From a virus: a stretch of 59,104 bases of DNA. The notes beneath the pieces were generated by a model. That model did no database searches. It worked only from the letters and a program-made list of their open reading frames with translations, and was not told the origin of the DNA. Both the position numbers and the translations under genes were made by a program. Shown here piece by piece: positions 10,829-38,184 of the stretch. Numbering within the stretch: position 1 is the first letter of the stretch; each line of letters begins with the position of its first letter. The stretch is taken from the IMG/VR virus record IMGVR_UViG_3300044995_000110, positions 1-59,104 of that record. One strand, 5' to 3'.

Positions 10829-10831
10829 GCC

Positions 10832-11842: not shown

Positions 11843-11856
11843 AAAGGAAACAATCT

Positions 11857-12729
11857 ATGTTTGGCTTTTTCAAGAAACCCAAAGCGGCCCCAAGGCTTGA
11901 GGAGTTAAAACTTCCTGAAGTTAATAAATACCTGGAAGAATATCTCAAGCAGGGCGAGCTTCAGCCGAAGCTTCAGGACTTTGCAAACAAGCTGAACACT
12001 GGCTATCGTGAAAGCCTAGATAGCGCAATTCCTGGACTTTTGGATCGTCTCAATCGGGCTGGGCAAACCACCGACTCCTATCTGCGAGGCGAGATTCCAA
12101 AAGATGTCCGTGATGCCATCATCCGTGGAAGCGTGGCGCGCTCAATCAGTGGTGGTTATGGTCCAGACAGCCTGATGGGGAGAAATTTAACCTCCCGTGA
12201 CCTTGGCTTAACAAGTATGGATTTGATGAGCCAGGGATTTGCGCGCCTTGGCAACGAGCTTAATTGGAGCCAGGCACTGACCCCCGCCATCGCGCAGAAC
12301 ATGATTTATGATCCTGGAACCATCATGCAGCGGCGTGACAATGAGGCCATGACCAACCTCAACATCCGCAACCAAAACAAGCAAATTGATTTTGCCAACA
12401 GCCAGCGGAAATCGGGTTTCAGCAGGCTGCTTGAAAGCACCATAGGCAACATAGTAAGCACGCCATTCAACTTTTTGAATAACTCTTTGGGGGTTGTGCA
12501 GCAGATACCGCAAATGGCTGCTGGTGCTGCCATGTCTTACTTGACGCCAACTCCTAGATTTTGGGGCAACAATGTGGGTGGGGTTGGCGGGATTGGGCTA
12601 GGCTCTTCTTATGGCTATTTTGGCCAGGCACCGAGCGCCTTTGGTGGCAGCCCGCTAGGACTTGGCTCTAACTTTTTGGGGAACATGTTTAACCCAACGG
12701 CACCTCGCGCCTTGCCCTACTATTACTAG
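11857..12729 (+). CDS. Hypothetical virion (internal?) protein with a Gly-rich C-terminus
   Basis: A 290-aa ORF with an AAAGGAAA SD region upstream. The tail is Gly-rich (GGVGGIGLGSSYGYFG...). Confidence 0.7.
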   Translation: MFGFFKKPKAAPRLEELKLPEVNKYLEEYLKQGELQPKLQDFANKLNTGYRESLDSAIPGLLDRLNRAGQTTDSYLRGEIPKDVRDAIIRGSVARSISGGYGPDSLMGRNLTSRDLGLTSMDLMSQGFARLGNELNWSQALTPAIAQNMIYDPGTIMQRRDNEAMTNLNIRNQNKQIDFANSQRKSGFSRLLESTIGNIVSTPFNFLNNSLGVVQQIPQMAAGAAMSYLTPTPRFWGNNVGGVGGIGLGSSYGYFGQAPSAFGGSPLGLGSNFLGNMFNPTAPRALPYYY

Positions 12730-12741
12730 GAGACAGAAAAC

Positions 12742-17200: not shown

Positions 17201-20200
17201 CAAGGCGAGGGGCGAGCGCAGCCCCAGGAAAACAAAGCAGGCCAACGAAAAGGCCGCAACATCCAAGATTGCCGACATTCTCGATGGGAAAATTAAACAA
17301 CATGGCAAAGGGCAGAGAACTATCAAGCTTGCCGAAGCGCAAAAGCAAGAGCTTGTGGCATTTCTCTTAAAAGCGCGTGAATTTGCCGACAGCATTGCAT
17401 CAAACCCCACTACGTTCACGTGGTTTGATGAGGCAACCAAGTTGCAGGCCATTGATGATGCAGCCTACCAGGCCGCGCGCCGAGCCTTGCTTTGGATCGA
17501 GCAATACGGCTCATTGGAAGCAAAGAACGAGCAGGGACGCGGATTTGCGTGGGTGAACTACATGAAGCCAACACTGCGCAAGTATGCTGCTAGTGAAGCC
17601 AATGCGCCCAAGATTAGCCTAGATGCCCAGCCTGTAGAAAAAGCATCCAATCAAAGCGATGGGGATACCAATGTTGAAGATGGCTTGGGCGTTGGTGAAG
17701 AAGAAGTTGGGACTGAAGGCGATGACATTAACGAGCCGCCCATTCAACAGTTCACAGAGGATGGCGAGCCAATAGAAAGTGGGGCCGAAACGCTGGACAA
17801 TTCCATTGCCACTCCCGAAAGCCCAGAAAGGGCAAAGATTCGTCAAGAGATTAATGACGAGCTAGAGAAGGTGGCAGCGCAGACTAAAGAGAAAATCAAT
17901 AATTCCTCTATTCCTGCAACAATCAAGAATGCGCTCATCAATTTAGTCAACGACGAGCTTCGCCAGTCTGACATGCAGGCGATTTGGGAGTTCATTGAGA
18001 CCAACAGGGAGCAGCAGCCTTTTGTTGCTGACATTCTTCAGGAATGGAAAGAAAGGCGTGATGAGCTTGCCCGCTTTGCCAGTAAAGGCAGGAGGAAGAT
18101 CGAAGGGTTGCAATGGAGCATGGCCAATGACACGCAACTCAAGGTGCGCAACGTCATCCAGCGCCTTGCCAGAGTTTTGCTGCCAGAAGGCATTGATATT
18201 GCCTGGCTTAACGATCCCACTGATCCTGCCGCCATGTTTGTCGAGGTTGGGGAGTCGAACGTCGTTTTTGCCAACCTGTTCCGCTTGGCTGAAACCTTTA
18301 ATGAACTTGGCAACATGGGGGCCAAGGAAAAAGAAAAAGCCTTCGAGGAATACGTTAGGGCCGTTCTTGCCGAAGAAATGCATCACCTTGCGCACGACCA
18401 GGTGATGATGAAGCTTTGGGAGGAGTCTGGCACTGAGATGTCTTATGAGGAGTTTGTGGCCGAACATGGTCGTAGGCTCATTGATGAAATGGGCATAACC
18501 AAGGCGGAGCAATTCGCCGCCAGATACCTTCAGGCATCCCGTGTTTTGACATTACGCAACTCGTCTGGCGAGATTATTGGCTTTGCCAATGCCGATAGCG
18601 GCAGCGTGGGTGACGTCCTTTGGATTGACAATTTCTTCCCTGAGTTTGCCGCCGAATGGAGCGCGCATTCTCGTGGCCAATTTTCTGCGCCAGAGGCTTT
18701 TGATCTGGCTGGAATGCCTACTCTGAAGCAGTTTTTCTATCGCTTGGCCAATCTCCTGAAAACTTGGATGGCCAAAATACGGGGCAACTTCCCTGAGCTA
18801 CGCGAACGTCTTGCCGCCATTGATGAGGCTTTGAAAGCCGTGGAGAACGCCCCTAAGTTGGCCGAGGAGATGTCTCGCCAATCGCTTCAGGAAAGAATGG
18901 CGCTGCCATCCGCTCAAAGACGGGCCTCTCGTGGTAGAGTTTCTGACAAAGAGCTGATGGACAAATTTGCCGATCTTGAGGCGGTTGGATACAAATTCAT
19001 TGCCAAGCTACAAGGCGACAATGGGGCCATTTTGGCGATAAATAAATATGGCACAAAAGTTGTCCTTAAACGCGGACGCGGCCTAGAACAACGGCTTGAA
19101 GAATTTTTTGCCCACAAAATTCATGCCTTGTGGCAAACACTTTTTAATGACGTGAAAGATATTGGGGTGCTTGCCCCATCAGTAAAACTTATTAGCAAAT
19201 ACGGCTCAAATATAAGCGGCGAATGGAACATTGTAAGGCCAATCAGTGATACGGAGTGGTTTGATAATGAGTTGGTGCGCGCAGAATGGATTGAGAAACA
19301 ATACATTGAAGGCCCAACATTAGGGGAATACATTAAATCCTTGGAGCAACTTCCAGAAAGCGAGGCAAAATTTAAGCTCGATTCCTTGAAAGCTGCGCTT
19401 CGCAGTGGGTATTGGGTGGACCTGCTTCTGCAGAACCTTGATGGTGGCGGGGATAATTTGAGCAACATCATTGTTGATGATTCATTCTCATACGTCCCTG
19501 TGCCTTATCGCGTTAGCATGAGTGGCGCGCTTGGGTATAAGTCTAATGGCGAACCTAAAAGCAAATCAGAACTTGCATGGTCGGACAAGGAAGTGTTTGC
19601 CTTGTTGCCGGATAACGTCAAAAAGATGTTTTTGCGCAAGGGCTTAGATATACCCAGCATACCGGGGCTGTCCGATCTTTATGGGGAGATGAGCATTGAG
19701 GAGCTAAATGATGGCCTTGCCAAAATCCTGTGGGAATTTCATGGCGCATTTAGAAAAGTAATGGAAAATAAAAGCCCTAGATTGCGTGCAATTCTGGGCG
19801 TGCTGAAGAATCGCATGGCCGTCATTCAGAACGCATTTGGCGATACTTCCTTGCGGATGAAGAACTCAAAGAATATGACGGCAAATGAGTTCGTGGATGC
19901 CGCATGGGATGCCCGCAAGCAGCTTTTAGAAGTCCCTCTTGTCCGTGATGAGGCGGGCCTTGTCGCACAAGATCATCCTGTTTTCCAAGGCAATACGACG
20001 GCATATTATACATGGGTAGCCAATGGACGCCTGCTTAATCCTTACGGTGGTCCAAGCTTGCTTACGGAATCTCAGTGGCGGGCTGTTCGCACCCCGAACT
20101 TTATGGAGTGGGCTGGCGGTGACTGGCGTATTGGTGAGGGGAATGTTATTCTTGACCAACTGACTGGCGAGCCAAAGGTTTTTTATCATTCAACCACGGT

Positions 20201-23200
20201 GCCAGAGCTAAAGTCTCTTGCGCCAGATAATAATGGCCTTTACTTCTTAGCTGAAGATGAGCGGCACGGGAGAGTCATCTCCAATCAAACGCAAAGTCAG
20301 CTCAATTCGCCAATCGTTTCCCTGCCATTGTTCATGCGCGCTAGGAAGTTTTTGGACGCCAAGAATTACAACGAGATTAAGGCGGTCATTGATTACGGAA
20401 GAAGTGGGGCCGCTGACAAATACAGCCAGACCACAAAGGATGAGTTTGAGAAAACTGCGGACCTGATTGAGTTGCAAGCTAAAATATTGTTACGCGCAGA
20501 ACAACAAAATAATCCAAACGCCACAATTGAAGATGCTTGGAGCAAGATTAAAAATGTTTGGGGCTTGGTCGAAAATCCTGGGTTTTCTACGATCCTCAGA
20601 GAAATGGGCTATGACGCCATTAAAATGAGCGAGGAAATATTCCCCAAATTTGGGGATGTGCCAACTTGGGGCGTTTTTTACTCCAACAATATTAAGCTGG
20701 CTGGAGATGAAGCAATTTTTGAGGGTGGGCAAAAAGGGCCGTTGCCAGGCGATCCAAATACTGGGATATTTTCGGAAAGCCCCAACATCCGCGCCTCGCG
20801 TGGGCGCAAAGGAAAAGCAAAAAATGAAAACAAAACTGCTGAAACTGAAGCAAGGACAGACATATCTGGAACACCCGGAACACCAGAGGCGGCAAGAGGA
20901 AGTGAAACGCCTTTTGCGAAGCTGTCCCGAGAACTCGCCAGAATTTCAAAAGAGCTTGGCGCTGATGAAGGCGACCATGAAGCGCAAATAATTTTGGGTG
21001 AATATGCCATTCGCCAGATGATGGAGGATGGGCGAATCAAGAAATTGCCTTGGCCCAAGAAGCCTTCGGGGAGTGGGTTTGAGCACGTTGTCCAGATTCG
21101 TGGGCGGGAAGTTTACAAGTTCACCAGCAATAGCCAAGGGGTGCCTTCAGGCTATCGGGCAGTCCCAGTAGCGACCATCAACGGCATCCCTAGGGTTGTT
21201 ACTGGGAATGCGACGCCTTCGGAATATCTGGAGCGGTGGGACACATTCAACCATGTCTTTGGCGGTGTTGCGCCGGAAGTCACGTTTGAGGGCGCTGCCG
21301 AGCGGCCAGACGGGACCATTGCCTTGGTGGTCAAGCAGGATTTTGTGCCTGGGGATGAGCCTACCATTCAGGAGATTTCTGATTGGCTAAAAAGCGAGGG
21401 CTTTGAGCCTGTGGGGACGGCAAGGGCGTGGTTTCGCCAATCTGATGGCGTTGCCTTGGCCGACGTAAAGCCAGACAACTTCAGGAAATACAAAGGGCAA
21501 ATCATTCCTCTGGACATCCCCATTACAATTCTACCGAGGCTTGACGCAGCAAGAAGGGCCACAAGAGGACGCACTAACCCCAAAGAATACGCCTTGGGCA
21601 AGATGCGGCGGCAGAAAACACACGTCGAAGAAGCCTTCGACAGCTTGCGCGCCAATATAGAGGCCATTAAAGATGCTGGCTGGAACCGCATCAAGTGGCT
21701 TGTGGTTCAGAAGGCATTTAACAAGCAGTATGCCCTGCACGAGATGGAAAAGACTTTCAACCAGATTGTGCGTGGGCGCGGACGCGAGCTTCTTTCTGGG
21801 AAAGAGAGTGCAGCCAAGTTTGCGCAAGTTGCCACTGATGCTTATTCCATGGCGCACGAAGCCTTGTGGCTTGGCATCCCCGTGATGAAGGACGGAGCTT
21901 TCCAGGTGGATAACCGGGTGCGTGGTGTTGCCATGATATTTAAGGACATCCGCGACAAATATGGTGAGGATGGGCTAAGAGACTTCATGGGATATATGGC
22001 CGGGCGGAGGGCCAGCGAACTCAAGGCCATTGCTGAAGCCGAGCTTAATTCACTTTTGGCATCTAGTTCTCGCGCAGCCAATATTTTCAATGACATGCAA
22101 AAGCTTCGTCGCGATCAGCACCTTGAGATTATTGGGCTGAAAGCAGAAGATGCCAAGCTGCATACCGATGCAGAGCTTGTTGCTTTGGCTGCCATGACGC
22201 GGCTTGAAATCCCGCGCCGCGAAACCCTTTTCAGCAAGGCTGAGATTGCGGCGCTTTTGGCCATGAAGCGTGAAGGCTTTGAGGAAGCATTTGCCGATTA
22301 CCAGGCCAACGTGCGTGGCGTCATGGATTTTGCGGTGGCCACGGGACTAGTTTCGCCGGAGCTGCGCGATCACCTTGAAAAGCTGCACACACAGTATGTT
22401 CCGTTCTATCGGGCAATTGATCCGATGGCAGGCGAGTTGTATGGGCCGCCGACATCCAAGAGAGGCTTTGCAGACCAGCGCAGCGGCATCCGTCGAATCC
22501 TTGGGGGCACAGAGCCGTTGAATGATCTATACGAAAACATCGAGCGCAACATGGTCCACATGATGGTGGCGGGCATTAAAAACATAGTCATGCTCCGCGC
22601 AGTGGCTATGAGTGACGCCATCAACGCCAAGCAGAGTGCGGAAGCTAAGGCGAAGAGGGATGCCGCAATTAAGGAGGCTGAGGCGGAATTTGCCAAGATT
22701 CAATCTGACCTCAAGAAGAGGCTGGCGAATGGCGAGATTAGTGAGCCAGACTATGAGCGGCAAAGGGTTCAGGCAGAGCAGGCTTTGGCAATCCGCAAGG
22801 ATGAAATCAATGAACAAATGGCGCCCGATGGTCCGCAGTTCATGGTCCCTGTTTCTCAAAAAGAAAAAGTGGCCATCTCCAACTGGGCCATCATGCGGGA
22901 GCTTGAGAAACAGGGAGTGCCGGAGGAGCTTTCGCAATATATTGACCCCTCTGTTTGGGTGAACATCTATGCTATTGGGCGTCCACAAAAGGGGAGCGAC
23001 ATTGTTTCCTTTATGAAGGACGGCAGGGTTCAGTATCGCCGCATTGTGGATGACCTGGTTTGGGATTCTTTTGAGGCTATGAGCCGAGGGGCCATAGGGG
23101 CTGGGAATCCTTTTATGACGCTGGCTCGCTTTGCGCGGAGACTTTTCCAGAGCAGCATTACGATTACTTTGGAGTTTGTGGGGGCAAACGCCATGCGCGA

Positions 23201-24752
23201 CACAATGGCATCGTGGCTACAAAACAAGGATATGGCTGTCCCTATTATAGAAACAATGCGTGGGGCTTTGGCGTGGGCCAGCAACCGCCAAGTGGTAAAA
23301 AAGCTTATGGGGCGGGATGGCGAAATTAGCGACCTAGACCGCATTTTCTTGGCAGGGGCCGGCGACCCTTCAACTTTCCGCCAAGAAGGCGTAACTAGGG
23401 AAAGCATTACTTCTGTCACGCGCCCAAGGATTTCTAGAATCATCAAGGCTGACAACCCGCAGGCACTTTGGCAGGCTCTTGAGGCCTTGCGGCGTGCTGG
23501 CAACGCTACGCTTCAAGCCGCCGAGACTTTTGGCCAAGCCACAGAAAGTGCCACCCGCACGCAGGTGGCCCTAAACACTCTCAAGAGGACAGGCGACTTA
23601 GTGGAGGCGGCGTGGGCTTACCGTGAGGCAACCACGGACTTCTCGCTTTCTGGTAGTAGCAAGATGATTCAGTTTTTGGCGCAGACTGCCCCATTCTTTA
23701 ATGCGGGGATGCAGGGCTTAATCCGCATGGGCCGCGCTATGAATACGAGAACATTTTGGACGCGCGGCTCCATGCTTTTTGCAATCTCCACATTGCTCGC
23801 ATTGCGGAACTGGGATGATGATGACTACGACAAGCTGCCTGACGACATTAAGGACCGCTATTGGGTTTATCTCACAGGCAATAAGGGAGACGCGGATCGA
23901 ACCATGATCCTCATTCCCAAGCCATTTGAGATTGGAACCATGTTGGGAACAGTGCCAGAGCGCCTGACGGTAGCCTTCATGAAGAAGGCAGAGGGTGAGT
24001 TTGGCAAGGCGGATATGAGGGAGTTAACCTACCGCTTAGGATACCTAGCAACCAACATGCTGCGCCTTAACCCAACACCACAGCTCGTCAAGCCGATCCT
24101 TGAATTGCATGCTGGCCCTGGCGGCTGGAAGTCTTACTTCGAGCGTGAAATTGAGCCGGCCAACGTGCGGGCCTTGCCACCGGAAGCAAGGTATTATCCA
24201 ACCACGCCCTTCACAGCAAGAGGCATTGGCGAGAAGCTTGGAGTTAGTCCGCTAAAAGTGCAGCATTTTGTCGAAGGGTATTTCGGGACAATGGGCACCT
24301 ACGCCATGATGGCTGCAGATGCTATCTACAAGAACTTTGCTGACGTGCCGCCGCCCCCTAAGCAGGAGTGGTGGGAAAATCGAGTTTTGGGTGTTGGCCG
24401 ATTCATCAAGAACCCACAAAATGTAAGAACTAAATACCCTGACTTATTCTACAAGATGGCCGATGAAACTCAGGCACTTGCCCGTCGCGTGCGCCAGGTT
24501 GCTGAGGCCATGGACTTAGAAGAAACCAATCGTCTCTTGAAAGCGGACCCTATGGTGCTTGAGCGCAGCAGGGTGCTTGGCAAATATGAGAGAGATCTGA
24601 CAAATATCAACAAGTTGATCAATCAGATTTGGGCAAGCCGCGAGATGACGCCCGAAGAGAAGCGCGACCAGTTGAATCGTTTGTATCAGCTAAAAACACA
24701 GCTTCAGCGAGAAGGTCTGTCAATAGGGAAAAAGCTGCAAGCGCAAGAATAA
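14286..24752 (+). CDS. Giant (3,488 aa) polyvalent / internal virion-type protein with kinase-like and ART-like modules
   Basis: This is a single uninterrupted ORF. A kinase-like module (nt about 21060-21540) has GSGFEHVV, VYKF, ADVKPDNF and IPLD. A second kinase-like region (nt about 18990-19520) has VVLKRG ... LLQNLDGGGDNLSNIIVDD. An ART-PolyVal-like module (nt about 20100-20800) has EPKVFYHSTT, GLYFLAED, GYDAIKM, VFYSNNIKLA and NTGIFSESPNIRAS. A P/Q/A/E low-complexity linker spans nt about 16000-17300. Confidence 0.9.
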   Translation: MKQQEIPNNFLDSEDNGSSMATPMPDWLKPTALSNGQGERLNSAGGDYQLRLGEFRARSAALDLVNSAASGQDPKGMFEAYKNGIPTSGGKLIYDADSLSPAYAVASSIFNGKEKLLFQYTPLPPGEESKGGNSVVKRFRVIGDDPFKALDQARRAGVLPDSDFASLSKFYQANYESTQKTQQNIDKTFGEMKWYDAFGVGLSQGLGTWGDLPQLLNGLQQRAFGNEEEKRRLAEQKIQELQINAFGRPQQRFGKGAETLYSLGNEAGVMTPMFVGYVVPPAAIVTMPSYLTVQVARSYNSGWDEALQRKYQDGANLNDAISYADIAAKATTSIEFGSELAESLLPFARLAKGVRGAVRPFAEIGAQGLAGGTSEAISQMGQNLVLGKPIADDVGQSFVVGGALSGLASGLNQMRSERDWRKQYKALTTSDDNVAAYLWANANAETVVAVDKNGNPVQLKDLPAEFQFQISKDMVRQSKLAQSSGVTVESLESLSPLKRVAALRELSVDDLARIAAARQIEVSASGNFTQSELDKSLEEELRRRSEEEAGWSDQEFILKMGTARYEILSNNPDWAAAEEKASAKRRAASEAAQAASAVGPATQAAFQQKAEEQGAQANQQEAISQPIQAKDQKKQEMATNADLGLVAPIAEEEADASEAAQPVVPQEPSATQSPQEAKEEKQSAAARPVAPPQPVAQESSPVAKPAEEQAPAPQPRSEQNDEGIASTAAPAPLAPQSHSPAQQPQAQKPKPPMTGWVTTNDLDKILGTLADAIASEYAPDLRMRMFGVYNTDEVMSAVQDLLKNGWVYDKSKGRMANPQNWGEKPVDGLKRIRGGDWSPAPAIQKIFRAPQSQAAAEAAASNQQEPQQPVSQAERVETNEQAGTSSLPQQTQKPQESDSRGDRGVARRGVPVASDASQETQGQAQQATEERPQPRTGLSVTTPVAGPKEQAVDKKKQAPKPLTPEIETPSPSKARGERSPRKTKQANEKAATSKIADILDGKIKQHGKGQRTIKLAEAQKQELVAFLLKAREFADSIASNPTTFTWFDEATKLQAIDDAAYQAARRALLWIEQYGSLEAKNEQGRGFAWVNYMKPTLRKYAASEANAPKISLDAQPVEKASNQSDGDTNVEDGLGVGEEEVGTEGDDINEPPIQQFTEDGEPIESGAETLDNSIATPESPERAKIRQEINDELEKVAAQTKEKINNSSIPATIKNALINLVNDELRQSDMQAIWEFIETNREQQPFVADILQEWKERRDELARFASKGRRKIEGLQWSMANDTQLKVRNVIQRLARVLLPEGIDIAWLNDPTDPAAMFVEVGESNVVFANLFRLAETFNELGNMGAKEKEKAFEEYVRAVLAEEMHHLAHDQVMMKLWEESGTEMSYEEFVAEHGRRLIDEMGITKAEQFAARYLQASRVLTLRNSSGEIIGFANADSGSVGDVLWIDNFFPEFAAEWSAHSRGQFSAPEAFDLAGMPTLKQFFYRLANLLKTWMAKIRGNFPELRERLAAIDEALKAVENAPKLAEEMSRQSLQERMALPSAQRRASRGRVSDKELMDKFADLEAVGYKFIAKLQGDNGAILAINKYGTKVVLKRGRGLEQRLEEFFAHKIHALWQTLFNDVKDIGVLAPSVKLISKYGSNISGEWNIVRPISDTEWFDNELVRAEWIEKQYIEGPTLGEYIKSLEQLPESEAKFKLDSLKAALRSGYWVDLLLQNLDGGGDNLSNIIVDDSFSYVPVPYRVSMSGALGYKSNGEPKSKSELAWSDKEVFALLPDNVKKMFLRKGLDIPSIPGLSDLYGEMSIEELNDGLAKILWEFHGAFRKVMENKSPRLRAILGVLKNRMAVIQNAFGDTSLRMKNSKNMTANEFVDAAWDARKQLLEVPLVRDEAGLVAQDHPVFQGNTTAYYTWVANGRLLNPYGGPSLLTESQWRAVRTPNFMEWAGGDWRIGEGNVILDQLTGEPKVFYHSTTVPELKSLAPDNNGLYFLAEDERHGRVISNQTQSQLNSPIVSLPLFMRARKFLDAKNYNEIKAVIDYGRSGAADKYSQTTKDEFEKTADLIELQAKILLRAEQQNNPNATIEDAWSKIKNVWGLVENPGFSTILREMGYDAIKMSEEIFPKFGDVPTWGVFYSNNIKLAGDEAIFEGGQKGPLPGDPNTGIFSESPNIRASRGRKGKAKNENKTAETEARTDISGTPGTPEAARGSETPFAKLSRELARISKELGADEGDHEAQIILGEYAIRQMMEDGRIKKLPWPKKPSGSGFEHVVQIRGREVYKFTSNSQGVPSGYRAVPVATINGIPRVVTGNATPSEYLERWDTFNHVFGGVAPEVTFEGAAERPDGTIALVVKQDFVPGDEPTIQEISDWLKSEGFEPVGTARAWFRQSDGVALADVKPDNFRKYKGQIIPLDIPITILPRLDAARRATRGRTNPKEYALGKMRRQKTHVEEAFDSLRANIEAIKDAGWNRIKWLVVQKAFNKQYALHEMEKTFNQIVRGRGRELLSGKESAAKFAQVATDAYSMAHEALWLGIPVMKDGAFQVDNRVRGVAMIFKDIRDKYGEDGLRDFMGYMAGRRASELKAIAEAELNSLLASSSRAANIFNDMQKLRRDQHLEIIGLKAEDAKLHTDAELVALAAMTRLEIPRRETLFSKAEIAALLAMKREGFEEAFADYQANVRGVMDFAVATGLVSPELRDHLEKLHTQYVPFYRAIDPMAGELYGPPTSKRGFADQRSGIRRILGGTEPLNDLYENIERNMVHMMVAGIKNIVMLRAVAMSDAINAKQSAEAKAKRDAAIKEAEAEFAKIQSDLKKRLANGEISEPDYERQRVQAEQALAIRKDEINEQMAPDGPQFMVPVSQKEKVAISNWAIMRELEKQGVPEELSQYIDPSVWVNIYAIGRPQKGSDIVSFMKDGRVQYRRIVDDLVWDSFEAMSRGAIGAGNPFMTLARFARRLFQSSITITLEFVGANAMRDTMASWLQNKDMAVPIIETMRGALAWASNRQVVKKLMGRDGEISDLDRIFLAGAGDPSTFRQEGVTRESITSVTRPRISRIIKADNPQALWQALEALRRAGNATLQAAETFGQATESATRTQVALNTLKRTGDLVEAAWAYREATTDFSLSGSSKMIQFLAQTAPFFNAGMQGLIRMGRAMNTRTFWTRGSMLFAISTLLALRNWDDDDYDKLPDDIKDRYWVYLTGNKGDADRTMILIPKPFEIGTMLGTVPERLTVAFMKKAEGEFGKADMRELTYRLGYLATNMLRLNPTPQLVKPILELHAGPGGWKSYFEREIEPANVRALPPEARYYPTTPFTARGIGEKLGVSPLKVQHFVEGYFGTMGTYAMMAADAIYKNFADVPPPPKQEWWENRVLGVGRFIKNPQNVRTKYPDLFYKMADETQALARRVRQVAEAMDLEETNRLLKADPMVLERSRVLGKYERDLTNINKLINQIWASREMTPEEKRDQLNRLYQLKTQLQREGLSIGKKLQAQE

Positions 24753-27705: not shown

Positions 27706-28092
27706 TTAATACAATTCCAAATCGTGAGCTTTCTTGGAAACATCATCTAATGCGGAACGGCGTTTATCCGCGTTCCCTTGGCGCCATTGCTTTAACGCCT
27801 CATCAAAGCCCTCCCAGTCCTCGCCTTTGCCTGCTCCAAATAAGGCAGAAAAGTCGATGACGGGTTGCACGCCTTGGAGTCGGGCGTGTTCCTCGGCCAG
27901 AAGGCCACCTAGCTTAATTAGCTTTTTTATCCACTTAGACCGCGAAAGCGGCCCGCGCAGGCGGTCTATTTCCGCCCACGTCTCAGGTGGGAGATTGATG
28001 CTGCGGGTTACAACCTTTCGCCCCTTGCCGGACCCCTTTGGACGCCCGGCTCCTGGGCGGGGGCCGCCCCAGGTGTTTTTTTGAGCTTTCAT
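27706..28092 (-). CDS. GRPK-motif plus RHH-like DNA-binding protein (paralogue A)
   Basis: The N-terminus is MKAQKNTWGGPRPGAGRPKGSGKGRKVVTRSINLPPETWAEIDRL. It is paralogous to 28660..28854. Confidence 0.7.
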   Translation of the reverse strand: MKAQKNTWGGPRPGAGRPKGSGKGRKVVTRSINLPPETWAEIDRLRGPLSRSKWIKKLIKLGGLLAEEHARLQGVQPVIDFSALFGAGKGEDWEGFDEALKQWRQGNADKRRSALDDVSKKAHDLELY

Positions 28093-28659: not shown

Positions 28660-28854
28660 TTAAATCCAAGGCGCAATTTTACGCTCTTCTAATACCCATC
28701 GGAACCACCTAGACCGAGAAAGTGGCCCCCGAAAGACATCAATCTCCGCCCACATCTCAGGCGGGAGACTTATGCTTCGGGTTACAACTCGCCGCCCCTT
28801 CGGGCGTCCGGCTCCTGGGCGGGCACCGCCCCAGGTGTTTTTTTTAGTTTTCAT
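28660..28854 (-). CDS. GRPK-motif plus RHH-like DNA-binding protein (paralogue B)
   Basis: MKTKKNTWGGARPGAGRPKGRRVVTRSISLPPEMWAEIDVFRGPLSRSRW closely parallels the N-terminal half of 27706..28092. Confidence 0.65.
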   Translation of the reverse strand: MKTKKNTWGGARPGAGRPKGRRVVTRSISLPPEMWAEIDVFRGPLSRSRWFRWVLEERKIAPWI

Positions 28855-32344: not shown

Positions 32345-33781
32345 TTAAGCGAGTTGGACTGGCATCAGTAATGAAGTCATGCCATTGGGCGATTCCGCAT
32401 GCAGCGGGTCTTTGTCACTTGCGAAGTCAATCTTGGTGTGGCCGACATCCAAGATGTCGATAAATAAGTCGCGGTTGAATGCAACCTTGAGGCATTCGCC
32501 TTTGACCGTGATGGCCAACGGGCCGACCACATTGACTTTGCCATCTTGGGTTTTGGATTCCAACAAAACGCCACTTCCTGGGTTAAGCCCAAGCACAAAG
32601 GTTTTGTTTTCTCCCGCCACTGGGAGGTTCTTGAGGCTAGACTTCAGGAGTTCTCTTGTAGTTTCATCCAAGAGAAGGCTGGCTTTACAGGGCCGCTTCT
32701 TCATGACTTCCTTGTAATTGGGATAGGAACCCTCCATTTCCCTTACGGAAAGGCTGGCGGATTGGCCGGCCTGGATGGTGATGAAAGTGTTGCCATCCCA
32801 TGCATGCCCGCCACTGTGCTTAGTTTTTTCCAAGATGATCGTCCACGGATTGTTTCGGAATATTGTCGAGTCAATCACCGCACGAGACGGCAGGATGAAC
32901 GACTGCCCGAAGTTGACATCGAACTTGGCACTGACGTGCATTTTCTTGGCGTCAGTGCTTGTAAAGACGACTTGGTCTCCAACTTGGTCGAAATAGATTG
33001 AGTTGAGAATATAGCGCTTGGGGTCCCTGCTGGCCGCATCGACAACCTGGTAAATGGTGTCGCGCATGTGGTTGGGAATTTCCACGGACTTGGGTTGTTC
33101 GATTGGCTCGTAGCCTGCAAGGTAGGGATAGTCAGCCACGTCGAAGGCGTCCACTATGCGCTGGGCTTTCACATCATTGGCTGTGTAAGCGGCCTTGCAC
33201 TGACTTTTGTCCAGCTTTTGGATTGTGATTGGGGTGTTTGCATTCGCTGCCTTAGCAATCTCCAGGAGTTGCTTATGGTCAATCGCTGCCGTTACCGTTG
33301 AGCTTCCGCCCGGAACTGTGATAGACAGTTTCATATGTGTGTTGCAGTGCGACAACTTGACCTGTCCTTCTTTTTGCTCAAGCAAGACAGCCCCTAAGAT
33401 AGGGATGCGCTTGGCTTCTTGGCGATAAATGATCTTGCCCAAGTCCTGCAATGCCTTGGTGAGTTGTCTTGAGGCGAGCAGGCCAATGGTGTTTTCGTCG
33501 GTAGTGATTTGCATAATGGATTGCTCCTGTTTTTGGGTTTTGCGTTTGGTGGGCTTGGATTCTTTTGGGCTTCCCTGGGTGTCGGCAATATTCCAATCAA
33601 TGATGTCCCATCCATCAAATGTCATGCCGCGCTTTTCCATTTCGGCGCGGACAGAAGCCTCATTCTTTACCACCTCAACAATCTGCATAAAGCTCAGTTT
33701 GGCGCGGCGCACAGGCAGCACGTTGCCCGCCGCCGTGCGGTATGTCGATGGCTCGAATTTTAGGGTGTCTAGCAGTGTCAT
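32345..33781 (-). CDS. dnaN: DNA polymerase III beta sliding-clamp homologue with an N-terminal extension of about 130 aa
   Basis: LNSIYFDQVGDQVVFTSTDAKKMHVS, EGSYPNYKEVM, VAFNRDLFIDILD and the C-terminal MTSLLMPVQLA are clamp-typical. The start is set at ATG 33781 (MTLLDTLKF...). Confidence 0.8.
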   Translation of the reverse strand: MTLLDTLKFEPSTYRTAAGNVLPVRRAKLSFMQIVEVVKNEASVRAEMEKRGMTFDGWDIIDWNIADTQGSPKESKPTKRKTQKQEQSIMQITTDENTIGLLASRQLTKALQDLGKIIYRQEAKRIPILGAVLLEQKEGQVKLSHCNTHMKLSITVPGGSSTVTAAIDHKQLLEIAKAANANTPITIQKLDKSQCKAAYTANDVKAQRIVDAFDVADYPYLAGYEPIEQPKSVEIPNHMRDTIYQVVDAASRDPKRYILNSIYFDQVGDQVVFTSTDAKKMHVSAKFDVNFGQSFILPSRAVIDSTIFRNNPWTIILEKTKHSGGHAWDGNTFITIQAGQSASLSVREMEGSYPNYKEVMKKRPCKASLLLDETTRELLKSSLKNLPVAGENKTFVLGLNPGSGVLLESKTQDGKVNVVGPLAITVKGECLKVAFNRDLFIDILDVGHTKIDFASDKDPLHAESPNGMTSLLMPVQLA

Positions 33782-33785
33782 GATT

Positions 33786-34016
33786 TTATGGCTCGATGGT
33801 TGTTTGGTTGTAGTAGTCAAGTATCTCCATGGAGTCTCTGATCTCCGGCCTGCGGAGTTGGTAAGCGAGAACGTCCTTGGCTTGTGGATGGTCAAGGGGC
33901 ATATACCACGGCAGGTTAGACGCAATAATGCCCTGGTGGACCACCCCTTCTGGGGTTCGGATTTTATACCAAACCCAGTTTTCGTATGGTTGTGGGGATG
34001 GATTTTCTTTGCTCAA
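33786..34016 (-). CDS. Hypothetical protein
   Basis: A 76-aa ORF between the RT and clamp genes. Confidence 0.55.
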   Translation of the reverse strand: MSKENPSPQPYENWVWYKIRTPEGVVHQGIIASNLPWYMPLDHPQAKDVLAYQLRRPEIRDSMEILDYYNQTTIEP

Positions 34017-34037: not shown

Positions 34038-34829
34038 TTAATCTAGTCCAAGGCGCTGGACCGCAATGCTGTGCGCGACGGTGACCTGTGCCTTAGTCCC
34101 ACTTGGGTTGCCGGAAGGCGCCTTGAGCTTCATCCACTCCTCTAGGCCGCGTGCTTGAGGTGCTCTCTTTTTGTGCTTGGCGGCGCGGAGTTTGCGCTTG
34201 ACGGCGCGGGTTGGGTGGATGCCATTGGCATCTACGGCAACGCCTGTAATGATGCGGCGGCCTGCCTTGCTGTGCTGCACGTGGGTTTTCTTGGGGTTGA
34301 CCTTGAACCCATGTGCCTCGACTATCTTGGGGACTTCTTGGAGGACGAACGGGATGTCCTCCTCGTTGTTCCCGGAGAACGTCAGGTCGTCGGCATATCT
34401 GGTGTAGCGGATGCCGCGCGGGGCAACCGCCTTTTGGATAGCCTCATCCATGGGGGCGGCGGCAATATTGGCCACAAGTGGGGATGTGGGGAGACCCTGT
34501 GCTGCTACCTTGCACTGAAACATGGAATAAAAGCACGCCGATGGGATGCGATTGCAGTGTGGGGCCACCTTGTCGTCAGTCACCGTGTCGAAGAAATCGG
34601 CCAAGTCGAAGCAGGCGGACCATTTGTAGCCGACGTGGGCCATGGCATTGGTCACAGGAGACTTGCCGATCATGAAGCCGTGGACAATTTCCTTGTCGCA
34701 GACTTCTGCAGCTAGGCTGTGGAGCTTGGGCAGTGCCATGCGAAGCTCTCTTTTGTAATCATAGCGTGGCACCGCAATGGTGCGGTGCCCGCCACTTTTC
34801 TTGGGGATTTTGATGATTTTGGCTTTCAT
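34038..34829 (-). CDS. Reverse transcriptase, retron-type, compact (263 aa)
   Basis: RT motifs occur in order: IPKKSGGHRTIAVP, FDLADFFDTV, QGLPTSPLVANI, YTRYADDLTFS (YADD) and GFKVNPKKT. The retron-typical NAxxH (TNAMAH) and xTG (RRIITGVAV) motifs are also present. Confidence 0.9.
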   Translation of the reverse strand: MKAKIIKIPKKSGGHRTIAVPRYDYKRELRMALPKLHSLAAEVCDKEIVHGFMIGKSPVTNAMAHVGYKWSACFDLADFFDTVTDDKVAPHCNRIPSACFYSMFQCKVAAQGLPTSPLVANIAAAPMDEAIQKAVAPRGIRYTRYADDLTFSGNNEEDIPFVLQEVPKIVEAHGFKVNPKKTHVQHSKAGRRIITGVAVDANGIHPTRAVKRKLRAAKHKKRAPQARGLEEWMKLKAPSGNPSGTKAQVTVAHSIAVQRLGLD

Positions 34830-35314
34830 GGTGTTGGGTTATGGTGGATGGGCAATCGAGTCATTTACCGGGAGGTTAATGACGTTGGTATTGGTTGCCC
34901 GTCATCGACTTAGAAGGCGAAGCGCACTTCGTCTCGGGGCAACAGGCATTGCCATCCTTGGGAAGTTGGGGGTGAGGGGCGTGATGACTTGGCGTGGGAT
35001 CGTGTCAATAATGTTGAAAAGCGAGCAAGCCGGAGTCCAAAGGAGGCGAGGAATTTGGACGGAGGCTTGCGAGCGAGGGCAACATTATTGCACCAAGACA
35101 ATGGATGCAACTCCTACGCGGCGTGCTTGGCATGCCTGTTGGCGCCCACGACCTTCCCTTGTGGCACCTAGTAGGTGTGCGCCCACAAAGGCTTGTCATG
35201 GACGGCAGGCATACGGCAAGCCGCGCGCTGTCGGGATACCCGGCGAAGCGCACGGACCCTGGCTGCACCGACGCATCTCACGCTTGGGGCATCACAGCCC
35301 CTCACTAAACTGTC
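34830..35314 (-). ncRNA. Candidate retron msr/msd non-coding RNA region
   Basis: This 485-nt gap has no credible ORF and lies directly upstream of the RT on the same strand. It holds an 85-nt three-tier hairpin at 35006-35090 and two long-range inverted-repeat pairs (35297-35305/34972-34980 and 35132-35141/34940-34949). The exact RNA ends are unknown. Confidence 0.45.
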
Positions 35315-36616
35315 TTAACGTATTCTTGTGCTGTCTCCGAATGGTGGGTTTATGGATGAAGTCAACACCCAAAGAATGGGGATGGGTGGTGGTTTACCAA
35401 ACTCGCCGCAGCCGTCGGTCAAGTAGATGATGCATTCCGGTGGCTCTGGCAATTCGCATGCTGCCTTGATGGCGGGGCGAAAGTCGGTTCCCCCGCCGCC
35501 AACGGCGCGGGGCGTGATTTGATCGCCAGGCTCGTATTCGTCGATGTGGTTGACCCTAGCATCGGCATACATGACGGTCAGCTTGACCGGCTTGCAGTCG
35601 TCCATGATTGCCTGAATCTCGCCAATGAACTGGGCCAACTCCTCATTGCTTATGGAGCCGGACGTGTCGATGACGGTGACGATGTGGCCAACACATTCAC
35701 TGTCCATGGATGGGAGGAAGTAGCCGTAGGGCATGTATCGTGGGTTGGGGCGACTCCACGAGTAGTCATCACGGATGCGGCAATTGACGAATTGCCGCAG
35801 GACTTCCTGCCAAGGGATTGCTGGCTTGAGCATTTCGCCCACTAGGCGCTCCATGAATCCTGGGAGTTTGCCTTGCGCCTTGGCCAAGGTAGCGGCGACG
35901 GATAGGGCGGATTGAAGCTCTGCCTTAGCTTCTTCCATCTCGGCCTTGTCGCCTGGGTAATCTTCCACCATGCCCTCTGATGGATGGTCTCGGCCACTTC
36001 CACCTTTCCCGCTTTCCTTGGCTTTCTGGCCTTGCCCTTGCCCCAGCCCTTGCCCTTGGCCTTGGCCTTGGCCTTGCCCTTTCCCCTTTCCCTGTTCCTG
36101 CCCTTGGGCCTGCCCTTGCCCTTGGCCTTGGCTTTGGCTCTCCCCTTCCTCGCCATCTTGGCTTTGGCCTTGTCCCTGCTCCTTGGGGCTTTGGGAATTG
36201 GTGGCAATCTTGGCGTAGATTTGCTCGGCAGACATGTCCTTGTATTTTTTATCCACAAGGCCACCTGACGGCAGGCTGATATGGGCTCCTGCGCGCCTGT
36301 AGGAGTATTCCATGAGGTGGTTGTTGATGGCGTAGTCCGCAGCCATATTCCATATCATGGGATCGCGTCCATCGCGGCGCAGGTGGTGACCAAGGGCCAC
36401 ATGCATGACCTCGTGCACGAGCACCCCGCGCAGCTCTGCATCATTGAGCCTTGCGGAAAATCCAGGATTGAATTTAATCCATTTGCCGTTGGTGCAGAAG
36501 GTGGGGATGCCGGCATCCTCCACCATGGAGAGGCGCATTAGAAGCGACCCGAAGAAAGGATCGCTTAGGATGATGTCCATCCTAGCTTTTTTAATTCTTT
36601 CGGTCTGACTATTCAT
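35315..36616 (-). CDS. Zn-metallopeptidase-like (DUF2201_N-type) plus VWA domain protein
   Basis: HEVMHVALGH is an HExxH motif, followed by WNMAADYAINNHL. The VWA MIDAS motif is VIDTSGS. A G/Q-rich linker joins the two domains. Confidence 0.8.
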   Translation of the reverse strand: MNSQTERIKKARMDIILSDPFFGSLLMRLSMVEDAGIPTFCTNGKWIKFNPGFSARLNDAELRGVLVHEVMHVALGHHLRRDGRDPMIWNMAADYAINNHLMEYSYRRAGAHISLPSGGLVDKKYKDMSAEQIYAKIATNSQSPKEQGQGQSQDGEEGESQSQGQGQGQAQGQEQGKGKGQGQGQGQGQGLGQGQGQKAKESGKGGSGRDHPSEGMVEDYPGDKAEMEEAKAELQSALSVAATLAKAQGKLPGFMERLVGEMLKPAIPWQEVLRQFVNCRIRDDYSWSRPNPRYMPYGYFLPSMDSECVGHIVTVIDTSGSISNEELAQFIGEIQAIMDDCKPVKLTVMYADARVNHIDEYEPGDQITPRAVGGGGTDFRPAIKAACELPEPPECIIYLTDGCGEFGKPPPIPILWVLTSSINPPFGDSTRIR

Positions 36617-36625
36617 GTCTTTCTC

Positions 36626-36880
36626 TTATTGAGTTGCTTCCGCCATTCGCCGAACGGCTTTGAAGTATTTTATTGCAGCTTCTTGGGCGGCACTTGCATC
36701 TTCCGAGGTAGCGAAACGCCAACTGCCATTTTTCCCGTGCCCAGAGGCGTATGCGGTGATGGAGAGCACATATGCATCCCCGTCCTGAAAGATGCTATAA
36801 CTGTCATGAACTATGCGACTTAATGGCTCCCATGGGGTGTACCATTTGCTTAGCTCTTCGATGAATGTTTCGGGGGTCAT
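36626..36880 (-). CDS. Small protein, tandem paralogue 1
   Basis: SWRFATSEDASAAQEAAIKYFKAVRRMAEATQ parallels the C-terminus of 36935..37195. The start is set at the ATG equivalent to the paralogue's coupled start. Confidence 0.6.
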   Translation of the reverse strand: MTPETFIEELSKWYTPWEPLSRIVHDSYSIFQDGDAYVLSITAYASGHGKNGSWRFATSEDASAAQEAAIKYFKAVRRMAEATQ

Positions 36881-36934
36881 GATTCTTTGTCGAGGCGTTC
36901 CAGGGTGGCGCACCACCCTAGAAGTAGCCTCATT

Positions 36935-37195
36935 TCATTGTGCAACGGCAAGGGCCATCCGTCGGAAGGCCTCGATGTATTCTTTGGCCAGCTTCCGCGC
37001 CGCGTCTGCCTCATCTATGCTGGAAAAGCTCCATGTCTTAGTGGGGCTTTTGCCGCAGAAACACACGGCAATTTCTAAGGCGTATCTGCATTCGCCAAGA
37101 CCATGGATTCTCAACACTACATGGAATGGGCGATGGTGTGGCCTCTGCGCAACGAACCAGTTGCTTAGAGAATTGAGGAATCCTTCTGATCTCAT
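36935..37195 (-). CDS. Small protein, tandem paralogue 2
   Basis: An ATGA overlap couples it to the AAA+ gene stop. The C-terminus is TWSFSSIDEADAARKLAKEYIEAFRRMALAVAQ. Confidence 0.6.
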   Translation of the reverse strand: MRSEGFLNSLSNWFVAQRPHHRPFHVVLRIHGLGECRYALEIAVCFCGKSPTKTWSFSSIDEADAARKLAKEYIEAFRRMALAVAQ

Positions 37196-38184
37196 GAGAG
37201 GACGTGGACGTTCTTGACCACCCACTTGCTATATGCCGGGGTTTTTATTAACTCCTTATTATACCTGCAGGCATCCCTGAAGCCACACACCTCGAACTCT
37301 TTGTCGAGGCGCTCTAGGTAGCACACCACCTTATCAAAATTATCGACAGTGGCGCGCTTGGCCAGCCCAGCAATCACAGCGTAGTTGCCGGCCGGCGTCT
37401 TGGGCAGCTTGGCCGTGTTTGGGTTGGCCAGGATTTCGTCAACTGCGGGGACGTCCTGGCACGTCTTGAGGAAGCCGAAAAACTCGGCCCCTGCGGCCTC
37501 GCCAATGAAGCCGCTGAACACGGCAAGGTCGATCACCTCAATCGTGCCATCCTCGCCCGTAATAAATCGGGAGAGAGCATCCCAAGAACGAGGGCACGCA
37601 TAGGGCGCGTTCTGTGCCCAGTTCTTGGGGTTGAAGTCATAGATCAAATCAGGCCGGACCCGCACGAATGCAATGATTTCTGGGGCTATGCCATTGCTTA
37701 TTGCCCATCCAACCCAATCCTCAGCACTTGCTTCGAGGTGGATGTGAAGGAAGCGGCTGACAAGTGGGGATGGCATGGGATTAGACACTGCGCGGTCGCC
37801 GGTGCCGTTCCCCGCCGCCACCACCGACCAGCCATCGGGAAGTTGGTATTCCCCGATGGCTCGGTCTAGGGTAAGCTGATATGCCGCCGCCTGCACCGAC
37901 TTTGGCGCAGCGGGCAACTCGTCCAGAAAGAGCACCCCGTTGCCGCCCTTGGGCAGGAATGAGGGTTTGAGCCAGACGGTCTCGCCGTCCAAGACCGAGG
38001 GAAGACCGCGAAGGTCCACCGGCTCAAAGTAGATTAAGCGCATGTCGCTCAATGCTACTTCGAGCTCTTTGGCCACCTGCTTCACGATGGCCGATTTACC
38101 AACCCCCGGCGGCCCCCAAAGCATCACCGGCTGACGCTTTGTGTAGGCTGCTTTGAGGGTTTTTGCTACTTGTGTTGCGTTCAC
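37192..38184 (-). CDS. MoxR-like AAA+ ATPase (AAA_5 type)
   Basis: Walker A is GPPGVGKS and Walker B is VLFLDELP. A sensor-like VVAAGN motif follows. The protein is 330 aa. Confidence 0.85.
   Translation of the reverse strand: MNATQVAKTLKAAYTKRQPVMLWGPPGVGKSAIVKQVAKELEVALSDMRLIYFEPVDLRGLPSVLDGETVWLKPSFLPKGGNGVLFLDELPAAPKSVQAAAYQLTLDRAIGEYQLPDGWSVVAAGNGTGDRAVSNPMPSPLVSRFLHIHLEASAEDWVGWAISNGIAPEIIAFVRVRPDLIYDFNPKNWAQNAPYACPRSWDALSRFITGEDGTIEVIDLAVFSGFIGEAAGAEFFGFLKTCQDVPAVDEILANPNTAKLPKTPAGNYAVIAGLAKRATVDNFDKVVCYLERLDKEFEVCGFRDACRYNKELIKTPAYSKWVVKNVHVLS

Follow-up and report, generated by a model that had tools for sequence, protein, structure and literature searches.

A retron-clade reverse transcriptase and a candidate structured RNA encoded beside MoxR AAA+ ATPase and VWA metallopeptidase genes in phages

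Introduction

Do a reverse transcriptase (RT), the structured RNA next to it and a MoxR-type AAA+ ATPase with a von Willebrand factor A (VWA) metallopeptidase form one system? This question is raised by a locus in the IMG/VR virus record IMGVR_UViG_3300044995_000110, of which the whole stretch of 59,104 nucleotides was analysed and is referred to here as the window. The window is a phage sequence: genes for a large terminase, a clamp and a DnaB-like helicase are present. A sequence-only reading had described a co-directional gene cluster at 34038-38184 and had proposed, from adjacency and shared orientation, that it represents a composite module. Reading the open reading frames (ORFs) from the sequence shows that the cluster is real at these coordinates and lies entirely on the minus strand, in the order MoxR-like AAA+ ATPase, small paralogue 2, small paralogue 1, Zn-peptidase/VWA protein of the DUF2201 family, a 485-nt gap, and RT (Table 1). 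As that reading had also stated, no minus-strand terminator-like site was found between the VWA gene and the RT in a consensus scan, which is a weak test. In the sequences compared below, many phage contigs that are otherwise unrelated keep the RT-RNA cassette beside genes for a VWA protein and a MoxR AAA+ ATPase on the same strand, and in most cases the VWA protein is fused to a Zn-metallopeptidase.

Results

Close homologues of the RT are encoded beside MoxR-VWA pairs

Alignment-based scans of viral, metagenome and genome collections yielded 239 further RT loci, the neighbours of which were sorted by iterative profile searches. Scanning viral contigs with the single protein found nothing, so that the alignment-based scan was needed. 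The set of close relatives comprises 24 non-redundant loci that have enough flanking sequence and an RT scoring at least 130 bits against the window RT. A MoxR-VWA pair was counted when it was located on the same strand within 7 kb; RuvB and classical AAA ATPases near RTs are not MoxR proteins and were left out of the counts. By this measure, 13 of the 24 close RT loci contain a pair, as against 2 of 80 bacterial retron-type RT loci (p=1.7e-8) and 2 of 57 distant viral RT loci (p=5e-7). The neighbourhood statistics for close RT homologues are thus positive. The linked loci contradict the outcome that such RTs never neighbour MoxR/VWA genes, and they support the composite module of RT, non-coding RNA (ncRNA) and MoxR/VWA pair put forward by the sequence-only reading.

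Pfam typing divides the linked pairs into three distinct MoxR-VWA families. AAA+/DUF2201 genes are found on the same strand as close RTs of 37-62% identity at ten loci (L003, L335, L005, L008, L091, L013, L014, L015, L097, and L111) and are also linked to more distant RTs (L026, L031, L061, L062, L149, L162, L286, and L291). At L007, L016, and L024, close RTs stand beside a bpMoxR ATPase and a ~455-aa protein (489 aa in L007) with a weak VWA match. At L028 and L029, more distant RTs are accompanied by a CbbQ/NorQ-type ATPase and a CobT-like VWA protein. The VWA gene precedes the RT in most loci, the RT comes before both the AAA and the VWA gene in L016, L061, L111, L149, L286, and L291, and tight gene chains are formed at L008, L061, and L024. 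Overlap of stop and start codons is frequent, and the linkage is often translationally coupled. Among 21 non-redundant loci with an RT and a MoxR gene, each taken with 8-10 kb of flank, the protein clusters present in more than 7 loci are AAA (21), RT (21), and DUF2201 (17), followed by antisense shadow ORFs of the RT gene.

Some of the loci have further neighbours. A classical AAA ATPase of 505-545 aa (PF00004 and AAA_lid_3, with an uncharacterised N-terminal half) recurs upstream of related RTs at L093, L094, L025, L017, L019, L020, and L023. At L093 and L094 it is located directly 5' of the RNA hairpins described below and the RT, and at L025 a 200-aa protein with a weak EACC1 match lies between it and the RT. 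Two contigs of ~42 kb from Verrucomicrobiota metagenome-assembled genomes (MAGs) carry RTs of 34% identity followed by AAA and DUF2201 genes, and one of them, L286, has a second, weaker AAA/DUF2201-like pair downstream; both contigs, binned into bacterial MAGs, may be prophages or mis-binned phage contigs. At L003, a cluster of tRNA genes (Leu/Arg/Met) lies 1 kb downstream of the RT, and at L013 DUF2201 is separated from the hairpin units by a predicted tRNA-Tyr with an unusual ATA anticodon. Nearby tRNA genes are of possible interest, since tRNA-Tyr is cleaved by some retron effectors.

The RT belongs to the retron clade

To which group of RTs does the window enzyme belong? Its best PADLOC matches are all retron RT models, with no one type prominent. 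The best NCBIfam model, retron_St85_RT, matches with 141.7 bits, below the curated cut-off of 235, and the retron TIR and Ec67 models likewise stay under their cut-offs. When a profile of 45 members of the RT family was compared with the PDB, the retron Ec86 RT was matched at E=1.4e-38, group II intron RTs at 3e-19, Drt2 at 8e-9, and AbiK at 3e-7. Similarly, for a family member with 54% identity, retron RTs come out on top in structural comparisons of the AlphaFold model (pLDDT, the model confidence score, 92), and the fold search gave E ~1e-15 for retron RTs versus ~1e-8 for an RT of a diversity-generating retroelement (DGR).

Within the family, residues N61, A62, H65, Y145-D148, and G196 are invariant and T195 is nearly so. 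These include the retron-specific NAxxH and VTG motifs as defined by Mestre et al. (2020; PMC7736814): NAxxH (region X) is present as NAMAH and the VTG triplet (region Y) as ITG, with V replaced by I. Because retron models match best, the curated cut-offs are missed and NAxxH and TG are conserved, the window RT is, by its sequence, a retron-clade RT and a member of no named type, with a retron-like clade of its own. It is devoid of the N-terminal ~45 residues of Ec86-type RTs.

Other RT classes were considered and rejected. The window RT has QGLPTSP instead of the DGR-type motif, and retron RTs match it far better. Furthermore, the gap has no second copy elsewhere in the 59-kb window; therefore a DGR template/variable repeat pair, in which part of the gap would recur, is excluded. 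A group II intron is contradicted by the absence of any Rfam match at the gathering or permissive threshold, by the absence of a GIIM domain, and by a score of 66 bits against TIGR04416, the cut-off of which is 300. Pfam and NCBIfam domain scans of the RT detected no integrase, endonuclease or maturase domain.

The RT family comprises two size classes, a short one of ~255-330 aa, which includes the window RT, and a long one of ~420-470 aa. Long-form RTs bear a conserved C-terminal domain that was never met as a separate gene, and short-RT loci contain no free-standing homologue of it; a fold search with the full-length model was dominated by the RT domain. Long-form RTs with this fused domain have no MoxR-VWA neighbour, and short RTs pair with MoxR-VWA or another AAA ATPase. 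Such complementarity is typical of the effector modules of retrons and matches their modular effector swapping (PMC7736814).

A structured RNA with a family-specific hairpin accompanies the RT

The gap 5' of the RT gene has a minimum free energy (MFE) of -207 kcal/mol, compared with -157.6 +/- 5.4 for shuffled sequences (z=-9.1), and no Rfam match at either threshold. In the close relative L332, with 93% identity in DNA overall, the gap is 97.7% identical to that of the window (gap and RT 98%), DUF2201 92.5%, and small paralogue 1 89.4%. Both the MFE and the centroid fold contain a long-range closing stem with a1- and a2-like arms, which encloses a short conserved hairpin (hairpin A) and two long imperfect hairpins; a second copy of the conserved hairpin (hairpin B) is located closer to the RT (Table 1). 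The gap RNA is thus predicted to have the anatomy of a retron msr-msd.

The conserved hairpin became apparent as two short motifs that the window gap has in common with the gap 5' of the 62%-identical L003 RT, both being versions of one hairpin. It is made up of an outer stem, sometimes a bulged U, and a GYG-NNN-CGC top. The outer stem varies in a compensatory manner (CCG/CGG, GAAG/CUUC, CCCG/CGGG, GUUG/CAAC, UAUA/UAUA, and CUCG/CGAG). For hairpin A, the helix is 89% paired, with compensatory changes in three pairs. Hairpin B has a GAAG/CUUC outer stem and a GUUGCCC/GGGCAAC lower stem, and the latter covaries to GUUAUUC/GAAUAAC in L003 and GUCGGCC/GGCCGAC in L007. The number of copies per locus ranges from 1 to 9, with two in the window, nine within 1450 nt in L003, and one right after the RT stop codon in L007.

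A covariance model (R1) built from the window and L003-type copies finds extra copies beside RTs only (L091, L101, L097, L096, L093, and L090), and no hairpin in 35 RT-less control loci or elsewhere in the window. Because R1 is too narrow for every hairpin variant, a pattern scan was run alongside it. Matches to the pattern have a density of 0.26 per kb on the RT strand up to 2 kb away from the RT, compared with 0.041 per kb in the rest of these loci and 0.034 per kb in 80 DUF2201 loci that have no RT (Poisson p ~1e-21 or less). In the 59 kb of the window there are two hairpins, both beside the RT, and the hairpin accompanies the RT into L090, a bacterial prophage-like region. Being located only beside the RT and absent from RT-less loci, the hairpins were rejected as N4-type virion RNA polymerase promoters or general phage signals.

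Across the relatives, the folds place the hairpin inside a long-range stem of 13-19 bp, with one or two long imperfect hairpins coming after it. Such closing stems are predicted in L090, L091, L013, and L094, and L003 has a comparable unit layout. Five well-defined units have GC(U/A) directly after a1, 20-26 nt before the hairpin, where the priming G of a retron would fall.

Several loci contain more than one such unit. The nine hairpins of L003 derive from three kinds of repeat unit of ~105-125 nt each, and the RNA is multi-copy in L335 as well. In L091, inverted repeats delimit as many as four stretches in a row, including two clear tandem a1/a2-closed units with hairpin. Arrays of retron-like ncRNA units for one RT appear to be unusual. 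L090, from Pelotomaculum thermopropionicum SI (AP009389.1), encodes a long-form RT of 430 aa with a C-terminal domain of ~170 aa, and a group II intron RT/maturase ORF is inserted there between the retron-like ncRNA and the RT.

The partner genes encode a MoxR-type ATPase and a VWA metallopeptidase

The AAA+ protein of the window matches Pfam AAA_5 with 30.3 bits (cut-off 22) and bpMoxR with 25.8 bits, just below the cut-off of 27. It aligns with the phage family phrog_1297 at E=1e-98, and its best PDB sequence matches are the AAA domains of Midasin and NorQ, both MoxR-class ATPases. The AAA_5 P-loop, the Walker A and B motifs and the adjacent VWA partner gene together identify it as a MoxR-type AAA+ ATPase, and its homologue in phage FSL SP-058 is annotated as COG0714.

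The adjacent protein matches DUF2201_N (E=1e-58, 199 bits) and DUF2201 (E=2e-21, 77 bits), both far over the Pfam cut-offs. Profile matches in the PDB are minigluzincin/M48 peptidases for the N-terminal part and the VWA domains of Mg-chelatase or integrin for the C-terminal part. Residues H68, E69, H72, H77, D317, S319, and S321 are invariant among the homologues and correspond to the HExxH motif with a further His and to the DxSxS metal ion-dependent adhesion site (MIDAS). The protein thus combines the N-terminal HExxH metallopeptidase and the C-terminal MIDAS-containing VWA domain of DUF2201. A low-complexity, G/Q/S-rich linker separates the two domains and gave a spurious TrAA12 match in Pfam. 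Linkage to an RT tends to go with a longer DUF2201 protein.

All catalytic motifs are intact in RT, ATPase, peptidase, and MIDAS site. No PADLOC retron-effector model matched the AAA+ protein, the DUF2201 protein or the small proteins.

The association is one-sided and is not readily explained by shared ancestry

Mere shared ancestry of the linked loci is disfavoured by four sequence-based results, none of which is conclusive. Two of them, the three MoxR-VWA families and the clusters shared by the 21 loci, are described above. In a neighbour-joining tree of 93 DUF2201 proteins, the RT-linked ones are found at at least six separate places among RT-less ones, and several RT-less DUF2201 proteins are closer to that of the window (37-41% identity) than those of the RT-linked loci L005 and L008 (26%). 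The distance matrices of RT and DUF2201 correlate with r=0.71, a value that 0 of 2000 permutations reached; signals of this type serve as arguments for the co-evolution of retrons and their effectors.

The pair itself is widespread. DUF2201 is encoded in 565 of 50,697 cultured-phage records (~1%), including N4-like phages, phiFa, phage G, and PA5oct, and an AAA gene adjoins DUF2201 in 77 of 80 viral contigs chosen for the closest DUF2201 proteins. The closest cultured-phage match to the window RT has 34% identity and is found in other kinds of phages. Because most MoxR-VWA/peptidase pairs occur without an RT, they have an RT-independent role. The RT-ncRNA cassette is an add-on that prefers the company of MoxR-VWA pairs, much as type I-A retrons relate to free-standing Septu (PtuAB).

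Small paralogues and the surrounding phage genome

Small paralogues 1 and 2 share 33% identity (E=2e-14). Paralogue 2 has no Pfam, PHROG or PADLOC match and was found only in the close relatives L331-L333. In the same relatives, paralogue 1 likewise sits between the AAA and DUF2201 genes, and a collection of 5.8 billion proteins contains two matching clusters for it, the window's own and one 76% identical. The small paralogues have no homologues beyond very close relatives and offer no lead on function. They are not part of the conserved module and are probably lineage-specific accessories.

Downstream of the RT, a 76-aa ORF is followed by a DnaN-like clamp gene. In the clamp ORF, ~150 residues precede the clamp domains, and the listed start, TTG at 33925, is less likely than an ATG at 33781, right after the stop codon of the 76-aa ORF. 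The 7-kb region gave no megablast match to cultured phages, and relatives of the large terminase are nearly absent among them; the window is thus very distant from cultured phages. Its plus strand contains a single ORF of 3488 aa, which encodes a polyvalent protein with LPD38 and Kinase-PolyVal domains. Giant multi-domain polyvalent proteins are thought to be delivered by phages or plasmids to counter host defences. An N4-like identity of the phage, considered because of this large ORF and the distribution of DUF2201 in N4-like phages, was rejected, as the ORF is polyvalent and the terminase has hardly any cultured kin. Two further small paralogous proteins have the N-terminal sequence KNTWGGxRPGAGRPKG...VVTRSIxLPPExWAEID in common, which resembles a DNA-binding motif.

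Table 1. Positions of the features discussed, in the window and in related loci (numbering of each locus)
Feature	Positions	Strand	Remarks
MoxR-like AAA+ ATPase	37192-38184	minus	330 aa; Walker A GPPGVGKS, Walker B VLFLDE (VLFLDELP)
Small paralogue 2	36935-37195	minus	86 aa; ATG at 37195 overlaps the ATPase stop as ATGA
Small paralogue 1	36626-36880	minus	84 aa; between paralogue 2 and peptidase/VWA gene
Zn-metallopeptidase/VWA protein (DUF2201)	35315-36616	minus	433 aa; HEVMH peptidase fused to VWA with DTSGS MIDAS; G/Q-rich linker
Linker of the DUF2201 protein	36008-36181	minus	aa 146-203; QGQGQSQ... repeats
Structured non-coding region, candidate retron-like (msr/msd-like) ncRNA	34830-35314	minus	485 nt; ORF-poor
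a1-like arm of the closing stem	35290-35305	minus	GUGAGGGGCUGUGAUG; pairs with 34962-34976 in MFE and centroid folds
Conserved hairpin A	35218-35278	minus	core UGCGCUUCGC at 35243-35252; outer stem CCG/CGG; model R1 56.6 bits
Two long imperfect hairpins, msd-like	34990-35227	minus	within the closing stem; MFE and centroid folds; inverted repeats I1, I2
a2-like arm of the closing stem	34962-34976	minus	CAUCACGCCCCUCAC; partner of 35290-35305 in MFE and centroid folds
Conserved hairpin B	34892-34951	minus	core 34917-34926; ~60 nt upstream of the RT start; model R1 59.6 bits
Retron-type RT, short form	34038-34829	minus	263 aa; RVT_1 E=2e-25; YADD, NAMAH, ITG; intact
76-aa ORF	33786-34016	minus	3' of the RT, before the clamp
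DnaN-like clamp	32345-33925	minus	downstream of RT and 76-aa ORF
Polyvalent protein	14286-24752	plus	3488 aa
Small paralogous proteins with KNTWGG N-terminus	27706-28092; 28660-28854	minus
P0002 (L003), P0003 (L335)			order AAA, DUF2201, long gap, RT
P0028 (L005)			order AAA, DUF2201, RT; GTGA stop/start overlap
P0075 (L008)			order AAA, DUF2201, 82-aa ORF, RT; all overlapping
P0083 (L007)			order bpMoxR, 489-aa protein, two small ORFs, RT
P0011			long-form RT in prophage-like region of Pelotomaculum; no MoxR-VWA pair
L003, nine-hairpin array	8560-9980		multi-copy RNA of L335 at 2475-3897
L003, tRNA cluster	11892-12149
L013, predicted tRNA-Tyr	7736-7806
L025, classical AAA locus	7421-10963
L090, long-form RT locus	5420-9293		group II intron ORF at 6604-7875
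L091, tandem units	7100-7811
L093, classical AAA locus	about 1-2980
L286, RT-AAA-DUF2201 locus	8001-12763
L291, RT-AAA-DUF2201 locus	8001-12058

Discussion

A retron-like system with a MoxR-VWA partner and its alternatives

On the comparisons made here, we put it at about an even call that the locus represents a phage-borne retron-like system with the MoxR-VWA metallopeptidase as its partner or effector. In such a system, the RNA closed by the a1/a2 stem would serve as primer and template for the RT, and the product would be a small RT-DNA resembling multicopy single-stranded DNA (msDNA). The particle of RT, RNA, and DNA would act together with the MoxR-VWA/peptidase machine, gating being the best guess for how it does so. 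The most likely relation would follow the model of the retron-Septu systems (type I-A), in which a free-standing ATPase-effector pair is put under the control of an RT-msDNA sensor. ATP-driven remodelling would be the task of the MoxR ATPase, and a protein ligand bound at the VWA MIDAS would be cleaved by the HExxH domain. As the carrier is a phage, such a system would probably be used in virus-virus competition or against host defence proteins, rather than in classical host abortive infection. A bolder form of this proposal, which we offer tentatively and regard as somewhat doubtful, is that the locus represents an unrecognised retron class in virulent-type phages, in which 1-9 msr/msd-like RNAs program the RT, and the RT-DNA particle gates a MoxR-VWA metalloprotease that cleaves proteins of competitor viruses or of host defence.

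Several observations weigh against a retron-like system with a MoxR-VWA partner. The window's own RNA unit is without the GCU that follows a1 in other units, the DUF2201 tree is a neighbour-joining tree without support values, and the RT-DUF2201 correlation falls to r=0.29 once shallow pairs are removed. Within 10 kb of the DUF2201 gene, an RT was present in 0 of those 80 viral contigs, and the 565 cultured-phage records contain no close homologue of the window RT. Conversely, 11 of the 24 close RT relatives have no pair, some of them being located beside the classical AAA ATPase. Finally, RT and VWA genes are spaced anywhere between 0 and 4.5 kb apart, with other ORFs in between at several loci where the distance is 1.5-4.5 kb. 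The rarity of the RT beside the pair, the 11 unpaired RTs and the variable spacing would all be expected if the RT-ncRNA (making a decoy DNA, for example, or working with a host factor) and the MoxR-VWA pair were independent and merely co-lodged in an early/replication block, their adjacency having no mechanistic meaning; replication genes (clamp, DnaB-like helicase, and PolA) are indeed neighbours in the window and several other loci. We consider such independence rather unlikely. DUF2201 occurs in only ~1% of cultured-phage records, yet more than half of the close RT loci have the pair; three unrelated MoxR-VWA families are in use; RT-linked DUF2201 proteins look polyphyletic; start and stop codons often overlap; and, unlike the trio of RT, AAA and VWA, no replication gene is common to more than a few of the 21 loci.

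The MoxR-VWA pair might instead serve the RT, as an assembly or maturation chaperone of the RT ribonucleoprotein or by processing the RT proteolytically, with the RT-DNA as the active product. MoxR-VWA proteins are best known as chaperones in maturation, as in RavA-ViaA, CoxD-CoxE, NorQ-NorD, and archaeal virus tail assembly (PMC7159879), and for the phage peptidase-VWA pair a part in virion assembly has been suggested (PMC7824862). The one-sided link, in which the RT is found with the pair and the pair needs no RT, and the short form of the RT, minus the N-terminal residues of Ec86-type enzymes, would fit this as well. Against it, RTs of the long form, and those with the classical AAA ATPase as neighbour, evidently do without a MoxR-VWA pair. 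We know of no retron RT that needs such a chaperone. Although the sequences do not tell this explanation from the effector model, we judge it less probable still than independence. Preferential insertion of a mobile retroelement next to genes for MoxR-VWA pairs would account for the scatter of RT-linked among RT-less DUF2201 proteins and for the variable number of ncRNA units, and the intron ORF between ncRNA and RT in L090 indicates that the region accepts insertions. Retron-clade RTs are, to our knowledge, not mobile; the RT is without integrase, endonuclease and maturase domains, the RNA matches no group II intron or other mobile RNA in Rfam, insertion positions and gene orders differ, and three target families would be needed, so that this origin is very improbable. 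Phage RTs are often DGR RTs, and hairpins with a short stem and a 3-nt loop are reminiscent of N4-type virion RNA polymerase promoters, that is, of signals at the DNA level. Both ideas are barely tenable here: they are contradicted by the retron-like RT, the missing repeat pair, the 3488-aa ORF, which is no RNA polymerase, and the restriction of the hairpins to the vicinity of the RT.

Relation to known systems

How would a retron-like system with a MoxR-VWA partner compare with those already described? It shares with retrons a retron-clade RT bearing NAxxH and (V/I)TG, an adjacent ncRNA with a predicted a1/a2-type closing stem and long hairpins, and a modular organisation, in which one RT-ncRNA cassette is combined with alternative partners that are separate or fused to the RT. 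The closest parallel is found in type I-A retrons (Ec78/Eco7 and Ec83), where RT-msDNA is combined with the Septu ATPase PtuA and the HNH nuclease PtuB: here, too, the partner consists of an NTPase and a hydrolytic enzyme that also exist free-standing. In type XI retrons, which are RT-protease fusions, the hydrolase is likewise a peptidase. In contrast to all of these, the partner at the window locus is a MoxR AAA+ ATPase with a VWA/Zn-metallopeptidase, and the statement of the sequence-only reading that such a pair is not among the known retron partners agrees with the 13 types (I-XIII) of Mestre et al. (2020; PMC7736814). The carriers also differ, being phage contigs that do not look temperate instead of bacterial defence islands. 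Moreover, the RT is shorter (255-280 aa) and below the curated retron cut-off, the ncRNA hairpin is family-specific and the ncRNA can be arranged in arrays of up to nine units, and msDNA production and a defence role are putative.

MoxR-vWA NTP-dependent conflict systems (PMC7159879) similarly combine a MoxR AAA+ ATPase with an intact-MIDAS VWA protein and a peptidase, and in some cyanobacterial ones FGS-domain effectors are diversified by an RT of the DGR type (Kaur, Burroughs, Iyer and Aravind 2020). The window RT, however, is of the retron type and has no variable target, its context is a phage and not a multicellular bacterium, and the VMAP, iSTAND, and effector-array components of those systems were not seen at the window locus. 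The same two-gene unit is encoded by cultured phages (N4-like Schitoviridae, Thermus phage phiFa, Bacillus phage G, and PA5oct), in which a DUF2201_N/DUF2201 protein, at 33-38% identity to that of the window, comes after a COG0714 MoxR-like ATPase, but no such RT or hairpin RNA was found with these pairs. Iyer et al. (2021; PMC7824862) described a jumbo-phage MoxR and peptidase-vWA pair without RT and proposed a role as virion-assembly chaperone, in which reverse transcription has no part. Finally, in DRT2, DRT9, and DRT10 an RT also works with a neighbouring structured ncRNA template, but their RTs are far more weakly related (Drt2 E=5e-9 and AbiK-type E=3e-7, compared with E=1e-38 for retron RTs), and they have neither the a1/a2 layout nor a MoxR-VWA partner. 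For a link between phage RTs and MoxR/VWA proteins, the literature search returned only the DGR-linked MoxR systems and the jumbo-phage pair. A phage-carried retron-like system with this new partner class and new ncRNA motif is therefore undescribed in the literature searched.

Implications

Retrons are bacterial anti-phage systems with a defined list of effectors. If the proposed system is real, an AAA+ chaperone with a VWA-anchored metalloprotease would be a new effector class, and retron-like elements would be regular cargo of phages that do not look temperate. The multi-unit ncRNA arrays could yield several RT-DNAs from one RT, which would be relevant to retron-based genome editing, and the short RTs (~260 aa) with their compact, recognisable hairpin are experimentally tractable. 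The association would also open a first way into the function of the MoxR/peptidase-VWA pair, a conserved feature of N4-like phages and of many others. Should the RT-DNA particle indeed gate the metalloprotease, this widespread phage pair would be a conflict effector that is open to control by nucleic acids.

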